A stretch of DNA of 64,000 nt from an uncultured Desulfatibacillum sp. (GTDB lineage: Bacteria; Desulfobacterota; Desulfobacteria; Desulfobacterales; SpSt-501). Positions 19,356 to 25,400 of the stretch are shown one piece after another. The notes beneath the pieces are model-generated. The model did no database searches. It saw only the letters and a list, made by a program, of their open reading frames with translations, and had not been told where the DNA came from. A program made the position numbers and the translations under genes. Positions within the stretch are counted from its first letter, which is position 1. Each line of letters starts with the position of its first letter. The stretch spans positions 20,656-84,655 of the forward strand of contig CAZNKG010000009.1 of the NCBI GenBank assembly GCA_964573635.1, written 5' to 3'.

Positions 19356-22300
19356 ATGCGGTCCGAACTGAATGGCGCTGCGGGCGAAAGCCGATCCGGC
19401 GCCGGCAGCCCGGAACCCATCGCGATTGTCGGGATCGGCTGCCGGTTCCCGGGCGCCTCCGGACCGGAGCGGTTCTTCGAGAACCTCTGCGCCGGAGAGG
19501 ATGCCGTGCGGGAGGTCCCGGCGGATCGATGGGATGTCGAGCGGCTGTTCGACCCGGACGGGTCGGCCCCCGGCCGCATGAATTCCCGGCACGGAGGCTT
19601 TCTGAGGGACGTTGATCAATTCGACTGGAAGGCGCTGCGCATCCCGCCCCGCGAAGCCAGTTTTCTCGACCCTCAGCAGCGGCTTCTGCTTGAGGTCGCC
19701 TGGGAGGCGTTCGAGGACGCCGGGCTGCCGCTCGAGTGGGTGGCCGGCAGCCGCACCGGGGTCTTTCTGGGGCTGATGTGGAACGATTTTTTGCGGCGGC
19801 TTTCGGCGCACCTCGAAAGTTTGAACGGGTATGCGCTGACCGGTAACATGTTCGCTTTCGCTCCCAATCGCATCTCCTTCTTTTTCGATTTGAAAGGCCC
19901 GAGCATGGCGGTGGATGCGGCCTGCGCCTCCTCGCTGGCCTGCCTGCAGGCCGCTTGCCTCAGTCTGTGGGCTGATGAATGCGACATGGCGCTTGTCGGC
20001 GGCGCCAGCCTGATGCTGCATCCGGATGCCGCCATCATGCTCTCCAAGGCCGGCGTGCTGTCGCCGCAAGGGGCCTGCCGGGCGCTGGACGCGTCGGCGG
20101 ACGGTTTCGTCCGCGGCGAGGGCGCCGGCGTTGTGGTGTTGAAGCCCCGCTCGAAAGTGAACGCCGCTGACCGGGTTTATGCCTATGTCCGCGGTGTCGC
20201 GGTCCGCCACAACGGCCGCAACGAGTGGATCATGGCGGCCAATGCGGCGGGGCAGTCCCGGACCCTCCGGGAAGCCTACCGCCGTGCCGGGGTCGATCCG
20301 TCGCAAGTGGATTACGTCGAGCTTCACGGCACCGGGCTCCTGAAAGGCGATGCGCTGGAGGTCGGCGTCTTGGGCGAGGTTCTCGGACGTTGTCCGGGCC
20401 GCCGCCATCCCTGCCGGGTGGGTTCCGTCAAAACCAACATCGGGCACCTGGAAGCCGCGGCGGGCATCGCCGGCCTCATCAAGGTGGCTCTTGCGCTGCA
20501 TCACGGGCAAATTCCTCCGACTCGGAATCTGCTGCGGGTTAACCCGGCTATCGATTTCGAAAATCTTGGCCTGCGGCCGCAGCTGACCCTGGGTCCGTGG
20601 CCTGAACGGCAGGGTCCGGCAGTGGCCGGAGTCAGCGCCATATCGATGTCCGGGGTGAACGCCCACGCGGTTCTGGAAGCGGTGCCCAACGCCCCCCCGG
20701 AAAGGGCTGCGGGCGGCCGAGAGGCCCCATCGCCCTATGTGCTGCCGATTTCCGCGCGCACGGCGGGCGCCTTGCGAAGGCAGGCGCAGGCGGTGGCCGA
20801 AGCGTTGCGCGCGGAAAATGGCGCCGGGGCCGGCGCGTTGAGTGACGTTTGTTTCACGGCCGCCGTGCGGCGCAGCCACCATGAATTCCGGACGGCGGTG
20901 GTGGGGGAAACCCGCGCTCAGCTGGCCGCGGCGCTGAGCCGTTGGCTCGAAAGCGAGCCTGTTCCCTCCGCGGCCGCTCACTCACCGCCGAGCGTGGTGT
21001 TTGTTTTCAGCGGCCGTGTTCCGGCCGATTGGCGTTTGAACCGGAGTCCGCTGCCGCGCGACGAGCTGTTCTGTTCCGTGGCCGAACGCTGCCGCCGGGT
21101 GCTTCGGGAAGGGTTCCGGCGCCCGGCGGCGGCCGGGGTGCCGCGCGATCCCTCCGGCCTCCGGCTCAAGGCGGTAGACCGGGCGCGTTGGGAGCTTGCG
21201 GCGGTCCAAATGGCGACCGTAGCGCTTTGGCTGTCGTGGGGGGTGACGCCTTCCGCCTGCCTGGTGTCACGCGCCGCCGCGGATGCAGCGGCGCGTCTCG
21301 ATGAACAAGTCGACCTCGAGGAGGAGATCCGCGTCTGTTTCGGATTGAACCCGGTGCAGTCGCGGGGCGGCGGCGCGGACGCCGGGCGGCCAGACCGGGA
21401 CCCGACAGCGGAACGCCTCTTCCCGGTGCGAAAAGAAACCCTCTTCCCGAAATTTGGGGCGCCGCGCATCGTCCTGTTCGAGGAGCCCCCCAGTGCCGAC
21501 GAAGGGGAGGCGGCGGGGGCGCCGCGGGCCGATCGCGCTGCGCTGGAAGCCGCTCTGGCGGCGTCTGTCGGGGAGCTGGGCGCCGATGCGGCCGCCCATT
21601 ATCTCGAAATCGGTCCACGCCTGCGCCTGTCCCGGCATCTCACGAACCTGCAGACCCGACAACGGATTGGGGGCCGCTGCCTCATGCCGGCATCCGCGGA
21701 GGCGGTTGACCGTCACCTGATGGTGCAAGCGCTGGCGCAGCTTTACCGGACGGGATGGCCTGTTCGTTGGAGCGGTTTTTATGCGCACGGAGGGCGCTGC
21801 GTGCATCTTCCCCCGTACCCGTGGGAGCGGGAGCGGCTGTGGCCGCCTTGTCTCGACGCCGAAGCGCGCGGCGGCCAAGCGCGGCCGGGCCGGCGGCTTG
21901 AAGGCCCGAATGCGGCCTCCGCGCCGCCGTCAACGGGGAACCAAGACGGTTCGGCGGCCGCGCCACAAAACCGGTCGGACGGCGGCGATCTCGGGATGAG
22001 TTCGGTGCGGACGCTTTCGGCCGCCTGGCGGAACACCCCCCGGACGGGGCCGCTGCGTCCGCTGCTGGTCGGGGTCCTGTCCTCTCACCTGATCGATATC
22101 CTCGGGTTTGAAAGGGGGGTGAGCCTGGATCCCCACCGGCGTTTGTTCGAATTGGGGATGAATTCCCTGGCCACGGTCGAACTCATGCGCCGCCTGGAGC
22201 TCGAAATCGGGCGACGTTTCCCGCCGACGCTCATCTTCGACTATCCGACCATCGACGGCTTGGCCGGCTGCCTGGAACGCGAGTTGTCGGACGGACCGGA

Positions 22301-22442: not shown

Positions 22443-25400
22443 ACGCGAATGAGACGGAACCGGTCAAGCGGTCGTCGCTGAAACGGGCCTTGCTCGCCAT
22501 CGATCAACTCCAGGTGCGGTTGGAGGAGCTGGAACGCCGCCGGAAGGAGCCGGTCGCGGTGATCGGCATGGGGTGCCGCTTCCCCGGGAATGCCGATGAC
22601 CCGGAGTCCTATTGGCAGCTGCTCTGCGACGGCCGCGACACCCTCACAGAGATCCCGGCGGATCGTTGGGATGTCGACGCCTTTTACGATCCGCAGCCGG
22701 GCCGCCCCGGGAAAATGTACACCCGATACGGGTCGTTCCTGGAAAATGTGGACCGCTTTGATGCGGCCTTTTTCGGCATTTCCCCCCGGGAGGCCGCCTT
22801 GATGGATCCCCAGCAGCGGTTGGTCTTGGAAGTCGGCTGGGAGGCGCTCGAACACGCCGGCATCGCCGCGGATCGCTTGAGCGGCAGCCGTTCGGGGGTA
22901 TTCATCGGCGCCATGACCGACGATTACCTGCGGCTCTGTCTGAACGCGCGCGATCCGCAGCTGCTCGGCGCCCATTTCGTCACCGGCAATTCCCTGAGCT
23001 TCACCGCCGGCCGGCTCTCCTATTTCCTGGGCCTGCACGGCCCCAGCCTTACGGTGGACACGGCGTGCTCCTCCTCGCTCACGGCGGTTCACTTGGCCTG
23101 CAGCAGCCTGCGCTCCGGGGAGTGCGACCTGGCGCTGGCCGGCGGCGTCAACCTGATTCTTTCCCCCGAGCTCTTCATCTCGCTCTCCCAGAATCGTGCG
23201 ATTTCGGCCGACGGCCGCTGCAAGACCTTCGATGAATCCGCCGACGGTTTCGGCCGGGGCGAAGGTTGCGGAATCCTGGTGCTGAAGCGGCTATCCGATG
23301 CGTTGACCGCCGGCGACCCGATATGGGCGGTCATCCGCGGTTCAGCCATCACCCACGACGGCCCGAGCGGCGGGCTGACGGTCCCGAACGGCAAGGCCCA
23401 GCAGGCCATGCTGCGCGGCGCCCTGGCGGACGCCTGCTTGTCGCCCGCCGCGGTGCAGTATGTCGAGGCGCATGGAACCGGAACGCCCCTCGGAGACCCG
23501 ATTGAGGTGGAGGCGCTCGGCGCTGTTTTGTGCGAGGGCCGCAGCCCGGAGCAGCCGCTGGTGGTCGGTTCCGTAAAAACCCTGATCGGCCATCTCGACT
23601 CGGCGGCCGGCGCGGCCGGATTGATCAAGGTCGTGTTGTGCCTGCATCACGGACGAATACCGCCCATCCGGAATTTTCGCAAAGCCAACCCCCATTTGCC
23701 CCTCGAACGGTTTCCGATCCGGATCGCCACCGGTGAAATGGAGTGGCCGCGCGGCGCCGTGCCGCGGGTCGCCGGTGTCAGCGGGTTCGGGCTGGGGGGC
23801 ACGAACGTCCATGTGGTCGTCGGGGAGGCCCCGGCGGCCCCCCCGGAGCGCCCGAAACCGGAGCGGACCTACCACATCCTGGCGCTATCGGCCAAGACCG
23901 AACCGGCTTTGAGCGAGCTGGCCGCACGGACCGTCGGCTGTCTGCAGTCCCATCCGGAGCCTTCGCTTGCGGCTGTGTGCCACGCGGCGAACAACGGCCG
24001 CGCGCACTTCGATCATCGGGCGGCCGTGGTCGTGAAAACAGTCGCGGAAACCGCAGCCCGTCTGGAAGAGATCGCTCGCGGCCGGGGGAGGGGGGGCTGC
24101 CGGGGCTGCGGGCCCATGATGCATCAACCTCCGCGGATCGGCTTTCTGTTTTCAGGCGTGGCGGCGCCGGCGGCGGGGTTGGGGCGCCGGCTTTACGAGG
24201 AACCGGGCGCCTTTCGCGATGCGATGGAGGCGTGCGAGCGCTTGGTGCGCCATCGTCTCCATGAGCCGCTCGCCGCCGCTCTGTTTGCACCCGGCGACCC
24301 CGCCGATCGACCGCAGGATCCCCGATGGCAGGACGCCGCTCTTTTTGCGATGGCGTATGCCTTGGCCAGTCTGTGGGGCGACTGGGGGATTGGACCCTGC
24401 GCCCTCATGGGCGTCGGTCCCGGTGAATACGCGGCCGCCTGCTGGGCCGGCGTCTTCGGCTTGGAAGACGCGATGCGGCTGGCGATCGGGGACGACCCGG
24501 ATCCGGTTAGCTACAGCCCTCCGAATCTCGCCGTCATCTCCAGTCTGTCCGGCGAGGTGGCACGCCCCGGTGAGATGAGCTGCGCCGCCTACTGGCGAGA
24601 TGTGCGGAAGCGTTCCGGGAGGGCGCGGGAGGGCCTGCAGGCGCTGCAGCGCATCGGCATCGATGTTTTCGTCGAAGTCGGACCCGCACCGGCCATTTTG
24701 GAGTCGGCAAGCGACGGGTGGCCGAGCGGGGTTCTGGGCTTGGCGTCCCTGCGGCCCGGGCGCGACGAATGGCAGCAAATGCTCGAAAGCCTCGCCGCCC
24801 TGTACACCCGCGGCGTCGCCGTGAACTGGAGCGGCCTGGGGCCGGGGGAGACTTCGGGCCGGGTTCGGCTGCCCACTTATCCATTTCAACGCGAACGGCA
24901 TTGGATTCGGGCGGCGGACTTGGGGAAGCCCCTCGCGGGGGAGGCGTCCGGCGGACGCTGGGAGTATGAAATCTGCTGGGAGTCCGCGGAGGCCGAGGAA
25001 ATCGCTCCGGCGGCAGCGGAGGAGAGCCGGGCCTGGCTGGTTTTCAGCGATCGCCAGGGGTGCGGCGACCGGTTGGTCGAACTGGTCCGGGGCGGCGGCG
25101 AAGCCTGCCTGTGCGTCGAACGCGGACCCCGGTACGGGGAGCGTTCGCGGGAACGGTTCGAAATCGCTCCATCGGCCCCGCAGGACTATCGGCGGTTGAT
25201 GGACCGCTGGATGAAGCGCGCCGCCGCGAGCCGCCGAACGATCGTTTTCTTGTGGGCGTTGGATGGCGAGGCGGCGGAATGCCCGACCGGGGAGGCATGG
25301 ATCCAAGAACAGCAAGGTTTCTGCGGCAGCGCGCTTCTTCTGGTTCAGGCGCTCGCCGCGCGGCGCCGCGGAAAGGAGCCGCTGCCGTCGCTGGTATTCG

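Follow-up and report, generated by a model that had tools for sequence, protein, structure and literature searches.

Truncated acyltransferase domains in two consecutive polyketide synthase modules of an uncultured Desulfatibacillum sp.

Acyltransferase-deficient modules in described assembly lines

Polyketide synthase (PKS) modules without a working acyltransferase (AT) of their own have been described in several assembly lines, and they offer the closest comparisons for a gene cluster in a 64,000-nucleotide stretch of DNA from an uncultured Desulfatibacillum sp. (contig CAZNKG010000009.1; the whole stretch is called the window here). In this cluster, two consecutive proteins, PKS1 (P0001, module 1) and PKS2 (P0002, module 2), carry shortened AT-like regions, and the last protein of the line, PKS4 (P0004, module 4), carries an intact AT.

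In the pepstatin pathway of Streptomyces catenulae, PepC has the order ketosynthase (KS), AT, acyl carrier protein (ACP), with a truncated AT, and malonate is still installed; the description of the ten-gene cluster names pepC as its sole PKS gene and mentions no separate AT gene, and pepstatin was made in Streptomyces albus (PMC12081711). PepC is likened to the present modules by description rather than by sequence, as a cis-AT-type module with a truncated AT in a hybrid line of nonribosomal peptide synthetase (NRPS) and PKS proteins. It differs in being a single, iterative module, whereas here two consecutive modules with an apparently dead AT are combined with an intact AT in the last one.

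Production of FK228 (romidepsin) in E. coli needs fabD1, its cluster being without a functional AT gene (PMC12994790). The likeness lies in ACPs whose modules lack a working AT and in the absence of a dedicated trans-AT gene, the ACPs of FK228 being loaded by a housekeeping malonyl-CoA:ACP transacylase. In contrast, the present cluster keeps one cis-AT, its dead modules retain half an AT fold, and dependence on FabD, demonstrated for FK228, is proposed here. Additionally, module 12 of the irumamycin line has an inactive AT, and the neighboring AT11 has been proposed to load its carrier (PMC11672594). That line is likewise of the cis-AT kind with a dead AT; its putative donor lies in the adjacent module, whereas the sole AT of the present line stands two proteins away from PKS1, and both loadings are proposals. 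Finally, the AT-null module 6 of DEBS can be rescued by the malonyl-CoA:ACP transacylase of S. coelicolor and by discrete trans-ATs (PMC6164871), which provides experimental proof of rescue in trans for a cis-AT module without a working AT; the knockout was engineered there, while the loss described here appears natural, old and accompanied by a deletion. The "partial AT domain" of marinolide was considered as a further precedent and rejected, because it reflects an assembly break and not a biological truncation.

The two acyltransferase remnants and their origin

An integrated AT with a Ser-His dyad is present in module 4 and lacking in modules 1 and 2. Four positions were compared by alignment to the module-4 AT, namely GQGSQ, the serine of GHSxGE, the arginine of RGxLM and the histidine of HAFH, which correspond to Gln11, Ser92, Arg117 and His201 by FabD numbering. 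The GQGSQ position reads GRVPA in PKS1 and GVAAP in PKS2, and the GHSIGE position reads VSRAAA and GVGPGE, respectively, with glycine instead of serine at the nucleophile position of PKS2. The RGxLM and HAFH motifs are found in module 4 and are absent from both remnants.

The original prediction, made from the sequence alone, had described decayed ATs of 185-200 residues against roughly 290 for a normal one, without a HAFH/YASH motif, flanked by retained linker elements and accompanied by a textbook AT in module 4. Its quoted motifs were recovered at the residues given, with VVFVFSGRVPADW at residue 607, WGVTPSACLVSRAAAD at 688, YLEIGP at 809 and YPWERERLW at 881 of P0001, and FLFSGVAAPAAGLG at residue 571, LMGVGPGEYAAA at 658, FVEVGP at 746 and YPFQRERHW at 816 of P0002. 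From the first strand to E(I/V)GP, the regions measure 207 residues in P0001 and 184 in P0002, against about 287 in module 4. Both lack about 100 residues, the small subdomain included. The description therefore holds in each of these respects, and the Pfam and structure-based alignment that it called for was run and found no Ser-His dyad in either remnant.

Profile searches distinguish the two remnants. PF00698, which covers most of its length in module 4 (Table 1), matches P0002 with 48.5 bits (cut-off 32.7) over profile positions 2-114 of 319 only, and the Pfam profile search gave no PF00698 match in P0001. The surrounding domains are kept, since PF16197, PF22621 and PF22336, which cover the linker domain between KS and AT and the post-AT linker, match all three modules, and the YPW/YPF-ERERxW motif is found as well. 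When set against the CurL KS-AT, the P0002 remnant covers residues 577-702 and 802-936, which identifies the deleted piece as CurL 703-801, consisting of the ferredoxin-like small subdomain and the helix bearing the catalytic histidine. In P0001, the small subdomain is replaced by a segment that is predicted to be disordered.

Structure prediction draws the same distinction. An AlphaFold2 (AF2) model of PKS2 residues 30-830, built from a 38-row alignment and spanning KS, linker domain, remnant and post-AT linker, reached a mean predicted local distance difference test (pLDDT) of 89.8 and a predicted template modelling score of 0.89, with the remnant region mostly at 80-95. The best Foldseek match of this model was the CurL KS-AT didomain (TM-score 0.90 on the query), and all 50 matches listed came from cis-AT PKSs and related synthases, as didomains or modules of the KS-AT type. 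According to this superposition, the module-2 remnant would be a compact core in the normal AT position that lacks the small subdomain. For PKS1, the model of residues 75-893 exceeds 90 in the KS and linker domain, while the remnant lies at 40-75 with three segments below 50, one of which, about 45 residues long, stands in for the small subdomain. This low confidence suggests that module 1 is much further decayed than module 2. On the sequence evidence, both AT-like regions very probably derive from ordinary cis-AT domains and have lost all catalytic activity.

Transfer of malonate by the shortened domains themselves, through shifted or alternative residues such as the serine of VSRAAA in PKS1, is highly improbable. 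That serine lies one position ahead of the canonical site, and an unrelated truncated AT described below (P0095) keeps GHSVGE. Neither remnant, however, has a GxSxG elbow; besides the glycine at its nucleophile position, P0002 is without the histidine helix, the malonate-binding arginine motif and the entire small subdomain, one half of the substrate cleft, and the losses in P0001 noted above, of HAFH, RGxLM and an ordered small subdomain, point the same way.

The truncations could also have been mimicked by frameshifts or collapsed reads in normal ATs, an explanation that was rejected and retains a negligible probability. A tblastn search with the module-4 AT found no AT-like sequence in other frames of 19176-26911; the significant matches lie solely in the two genes' own frames, including the in-frame high-scoring segment pairs of the module-1 remnant (E 1.5e-12 and 6.7e-7), which argues that no frameshift conceals the missing AT part. 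The lengths of the open reading frames (ORFs) and proteins are the same in separate JGI, NCBI and Logan metagenome assemblies. In a diverged strain contig from another sample (L018, about 4% silent divergence), PKS1 has an identical length and shows no indels relative to the window, with 43 codon differences in residues 61-1088 and 48 across the whole ORF, while a contig from the same sample (L019) gives an indel-free match to PKS2 residues 659-1492 and the whole NRPS. The remnants can thus be regarded as genuine truncations, as had been predicted.

The KS domains place both modules among cis-AT synthases. The nearest relatives of KS2 among single KSs in the PDB are CurL (541 bits) and PikA1 (473 bits), while trans-AT KSs score about 355-396; KS1 is more divergent with the same top order (CurL 408 bits, PikA1 391, trans-AT KSs about 301-332). 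The linker-AT region of PKS2 finds its nearest database relatives in ordinary cis-AT PKSs, and where these are named, they come mostly from cyanobacteria and myxobacteria. In a tree built from 71 KS domains, the closest database KSs are those of modules with a full AT; KS2 is sister to two such KSs with 98% support, and KS1 falls in another clade. Since the two modules differ in KS clade and in the anatomy of their deletions, the two remnants appear to have decayed independently within one line. Classical trans-AT PKSs, such as bacillaene PksJ/PksL and the AT-less KS structures, resemble the present modules in having a KS followed by a flanking or linker subdomain, no working AT, and ACPs that depend on loading in trans. 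They differ in that KS1 and KS2 score closest to the cis-AT CurL and PikA1, the fold matches cis-AT KS-AT didomains, half of the AT core is retained, and no dedicated discrete AT gene is found here. As judged from these comparisons, both modules are cis-AT modules that lost their AT, outside the classical trans-AT lineage.

The same deletion of the small subdomain recurs in six unrelated PKSs. Among the 120 best database matches to the linker-AT region of PKS2, the AT region spans 240-279 residues in these six proteins and 320-360 in the others. At the nucleophile, the six read GQGVGE, GHGVGE, GYGIGE, GQDIGE, GDSFGE and, intact in one case, GHSVGE. The right-hand boundary of the deletion is common to all, just before the strand xPxIxxVSNxTG, whereas the left-hand one shifts by as much as about 20 residues. 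Six rows with truncated ATs are represented on the KS tree, the two modules of the window and four of the six other proteins, and they are scattered among modules with full ATs. A single origin of the truncated ATs was rejected, because the tree requires as many changes as there are truncated rows, six in each case, and its well-supported branches demand at least four independent origins. Together with the position of both KSs among cis-AT KSs, these repeated truncations in ordinary cis-AT lines argue for recurrent local decay of ATs and not for a step in trans-AT ancestry. The suggestion of the original prediction that the modules represent an evolutionary intermediate between cis-AT and trans-AT architecture thus survives weakly, in the sense that cis-AT modules repeatedly lose the AT and keep its core, and fails as a step toward the classical trans-AT lineage.

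Two further sequences touch on this pattern. Residues 561-840 of P0095 (locus L022), from a Chloroflexi-type PKS module, show the same deletion of the small subdomain and still read GHSVGE, which would place this protein at an earlier point of the same process of decay. In the host phylum, only 8 of 301 genomes, the window's own included, have any AT of this cis-AT PKS kind. In another genome of the phylum, a contiguous match crosses the deletion junction (G335:C32:12801-13358; query 82-269 over 558 nt) within an ORF of 2103 residues, and this AT-like stretch is probably another truncated AT.

Malonate supply to the first two carriers

The features of the cluster are collected in Table 1. Remnants that would be unable to transfer malonate leave ACP1 and ACP2 dependent on malonylation in trans if their modules extend the chain. 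Motifs suggest that they do. The alignment shows that the cysteine, both histidines and additionally the lysine are kept in all three KSs, in agreement with the Cys-His-His residues predicted earlier; the module-2 ketoreductase (KR) keeps its NADPH motif, the LDD motif of the B type and the catalytic tyrosine; and ACP1 and ACP2 keep their serines.

Table 1. Features of the PKS-NRPS cluster (window coordinates)
Feature	Position	Strand	Basis
Sfp/HetI-type phosphopantetheinyl transferase (PPTase)	15431..16270	+	Pfam ACPS, AASDHPPT_N; NCBIfam HetI-like 169.8 bits, below cut-off
Acyl-CoA-dehydrogenase-family enzyme resembling prolyl-carrier-protein dehydrogenases (PigA/RedW)	16251..17396	+	Pfam ACAD N, M, C
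Stand-alone adenylation enzyme (starter activation)	17393..18907	+	TIGR01733 356.1 bits (cut-off 317.4); Pfam AMP-binding
Free-standing carrier protein for starter, 85 aa	18912..19169	+	ORF with GILNS serine motif; weak NCBIfam ACP match, E 1.5e-7
PKS1 (P0001): KS, linker domain, putatively dead AT remnant, ACP	19176..22442	+	Pfam KS N and C, KAsynt_C_assoc, CurL-like_PKS_C, PP-binding
Module-1 AT remnant, residues 607-881, strongly eroded	20994..21818	+	Alignment to module-4 AT; in-frame tblastn segment pairs; AF2
ACP1 (GMNSL serine)	22089..22274	+	Pfam PP-binding, residues 972-1033
PKS2 (P0002): KS, linker domain, putatively dead AT remnant, KR, ACP	22433..26911	+	Pfam
Module-2 AT remnant, residues 569-816, compact large-subdomain core	24137..24880	+	PF00698 partial; CurL alignment; AF2; Foldseek
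Module-2 KR, B-type (LDD)	25697..26233	+	Pfam KR E 5.9e-61; motifs GGFHGLG, VLDDG, YAAAN
ACP2 (GLDSI serine)	26564..26758	+	Pfam PP-binding, residues 1378-1442
NRPS module, condensation-adenylation-thiolation (P0003)	26908..30276	+	Pfam Condensation, AMP-binding, PP-binding
PKS4 (P0004): KS, intact AT, carrier resembling a peptidyl carrier protein (PCP), thioesterase	30269..34240	+	Pfam; GQGSQ, GHSIGE, HAFH seen
Module-4 AT, sole intact AT of the assembly line, ordinary cis-type	31880..32722	+	PF00698 208.9 bits, profile 2-276

The candidate donors were sought with PF00698 across the whole 4.58-Mb, 98%-complete genome. Four matches were obtained, comprising the module-4 AT, the PKS2 remnant, a FabD of 312 residues and a PfaA-like AT, which leaves three live ATs. 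FabD is free-standing on another contig, beside hemA (TIGR00128 284.7 bits, cut-off 260.9), and is the sole free-standing match in this genome-wide search, which revealed no dedicated trans-AT gene. The original prediction had noted that no discrete trans-AT gene is visible in the window, and the absence of a dedicated one can now be extended to the genome. The PfaA-like protein (2092 residues; KS-AT-ACP-KR-dehydratase; G000:C7, locus L017 4890-12898) adjoins a PfaD-like enoyl reductase. Many genomes of the genus hold ORFs of similar size (about 2,100 residues) with comparable matches.

It is very probable that both remnants are dead and that some donor loads ACP1 and ACP2 in trans. The proposed explanation goes further, and as a whole it is held about evenly between acceptance and doubt. 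Both AT-like regions would be dead cis-AT relics retained as folded scaffolding, the linker domain, the large subdomain of the AT and the post-AT linker forming one structural unit packed on the KS. The small subdomain with the catalytic-histidine helix would be an insertion that can be lost without breaking this unit, and precisely this part is missing. The free carrier would bear a pyrrolyl or other aminoacyl-derived starter, to which KS1 would add a malonyl unit from ACP1 and KS2 one from ACP2, followed by reduction by the B-type KR and passage to the NRPS module and module 4. Both ACPs would be malonylated by the housekeeping FabD, and the module-4 AT would be retained for its own PCP-like carrier.

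Whether FabD is the main malonyl donor is evenly poised. It is favored because it is diffusible, is known to serve AT-null cis-AT modules, and because two independent decays in one line fit a general malonyl supply. The alternative that ranks second to FabD and forms its main rival is sharing of the module-4 AT, which would malonylate ACP1, ACP2 and its own carrier in a line with one AT and three KSs; it is considered possible, if rather doubtful. In its favor, the module-4 AT is the sole AT encoded in the cluster and keeps all catalytic motifs, and loading by an adjacent AT has been proposed for irumamycin module 12 (PMC11672594). The truncated module adjoins AT-matching modules at four of the six foreign loci (L014, L015, L022 and L023; intact GHSxGE and HAFH were read in L014 and L015), and the flanking sequence available at the six loci (up to 10 kb) yielded no call of a discrete AT gene.

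Against sharing, the module-4 AT sits on a separate polypeptide, with the NRPS between it and PKS2 and two proteins between it and PKS1. It is of the ordinary cis type, its closest solved relatives being the AT of ZmaA (261 bits) and CurL (242 bits), and it is far by score from PksD, DisD and PksE, discrete proteins of trans-AT pathways (about 95-120 bits, as for FabD and malonyl-CoA:ACP transacylase chains). Cis-ATs usually prefer their cognate carrier, and the carrier of module 4 (window 33075-33330; FELGGTSL) is PCP-like, with 41% identity and 56.6 bits to the PCP of the preceding NRPS protein, against 33 and 26 bits to ACP1 and ACP2. This atypical carrier offers a plausible reason why module 4 alone keeps its AT. 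A PCP-like carrier is unusual for a PKS module.

Several points weigh against loading by FabD on folded scaffolds. No co-occurrence signal ties FabD to the pathway, and its gene lies on another contig, beside hemA; the AT-bearing neighbors at the four foreign loci fit AT sharing equally well; chain extension by modules 1 and 2 is deduced from motifs only; and the notion of a folded scaffold is weaker for module 1, whose remnant is predicted with low confidence. Moreover, the selection on the module-1 remnant, set out next, rests on 12 substitutions and is not separable from that on the KS (Fisher p=0.38).

Comparison of the window with the strain variant introduced above allowed the ratio of replacement to silent changes per site (pN/pS) to be estimated. 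It rises from 0.06 in KS1 through 0.11 in the linker domain, 0.13 in the NRPS and 0.14 in PKS1 overall to 0.19 in the module-1 remnant. The module-1 remnant carries 4 replacement and 8 silent changes, and the deficit of replacements (p=0.005 for at most 4 of 12 under neutrality) suggests that it is still constrained. Ratios are much higher in the C-terminal part of PKS2 (window 25000-26911, residues 817-1492), where the KR region has 16 replacement and 13 silent changes (pN/pS 0.42, much above KS1 and the NRPS) and the ACP end has 3 and 1 (pN/pS 1.0 on four changes). Overall, the genes are judged to be under purifying selection.

The raised rates in the KR-to-ACP part of PKS2 speak for the possibility that modules 1 and 2 pass the chain on without extending it, are skipped, or belong to a cluster that is becoming pseudogenes, which is judged improbable. 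The bad erosion of the module-1 remnant agrees with such a course, as does the isolation of the cluster: no orthologous cluster by which the decay might be dated was found in 26 other genomes of the same family, the PKS1 region from remnant to ACP has no match in those genomes, and among 5.8 billion proteins it matches only itself. On the other side, all ORFs are intact and overlapping, the gene lengths are the same in several independent samples, the KS, KR and ACP residues are kept, KS1 is under strong purifying selection, and a KR would be pointless unless KS2 makes a beta-keto group. A PKS on contig 15 of a congeneric genome (G023), seemingly related, was set aside as a different, fragmentary PKS-NRPS with an intact AT. 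It lies at a contig end (G023:C15, locus L104 9592-19999), its KR and condensation domains are broken up among several short ORFs, and it looks fragmentary or decaying.

With dead remnants, active-looking KSs, KR and ACPs, purifying selection and no other AT to call upon, loading in trans, as put forward in the original prediction, is supported as the sole interpretation that still fits, and its choice of donor is left between FabD and the module-4 AT. A bolder extension is that the retained half-AT is a docking surface that recruits diffusible FabD, that deletions of the small subdomain constitute a second independent route from cis-AT to trans-loaded modules, and that the shared right-hand boundary marks the minimal AT part; this is speculative and rather unlikely.

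Gene cluster context and significance

The cluster is a co-directional, overlapping set in the order PPTase, dehydrogenase, adenylation enzyme, carrier, PKS1, PKS2, NRPS and PKS4. The start of PKS2 overlaps the stop of PKS1 by 10 nt, and the PKS genes are likely translationally coupled through such overlaps. The start of PKS1 is ambiguous between a GTG at 19176 (JGI calls, 1088 residues) and an ATG at 19356 (NCBI and Logan calls, 1028 residues); the 60 extra codons (19176-19355) hold 3 silent and 2 replacement strain differences, too few to choose between them.

The dehydrogenase, the stand-alone adenylation enzyme and the 85-residue carrier at 16251-19169 resemble a starter cassette that converts a prolyl to a pyrrolyl carrier protein. 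Gene order and types match the PigI/PigG/PigA or RedM/RedO/RedW arrangement, and the dehydrogenase falls just under the NCBIfam PigA cut-off (474.6 bits, cut-off 500) and matches RedW with 469.1 bits (cut-off 650), both over the full length. The starter of the assembly line is therefore probably pyrrole-2-carboxylate, as far as gene content can tell.

On either side, the island is bordered by glycosyltransferase and polysaccharide genes. The CTP synthase encoded in the window shares 78-81% identity with those of Desulfobacterales MAGs and of Desulfosarcina alkanivorans, in keeping with a Desulfobacterales-like host. The G+C content is about 60-70% across the PKS-NRPS island and its polysaccharide flanks (window 1-38300) and mostly 66-73% over 38300-64000. 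The G+C of the island and the rarity of such cis-AT PKSs in the phylum would fit horizontal acquisition.

The logic of loading in trans is already documented, and this case is a clear new example and not a new principle. Its combination of features is unusually clear: two independent relics, one live AT in the assembly line and no trans-AT in the genome. For genome annotation, domain callers will credit module 2 with an AT, because its PF00698 score passes the cut-off, and will treat module 1 as lacking one; either label misleads the prediction of substrate or product. For engineering, the repeated natural loss of the small subdomain and the histidine helix marks a tolerated cut for AT-null modules that are meant for complementation in trans, the unit of KS, linker, AT core and post-AT linker being kept through recurrent deletions. 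For the biology of the Desulfobacterales-like anaerobes, among which such PKSs are rare, two independent AT decays in one line make this cluster a clean natural system in which to examine how fatty-acid synthesis and an assembly line interact, the sole free AT of the genome being FabD.

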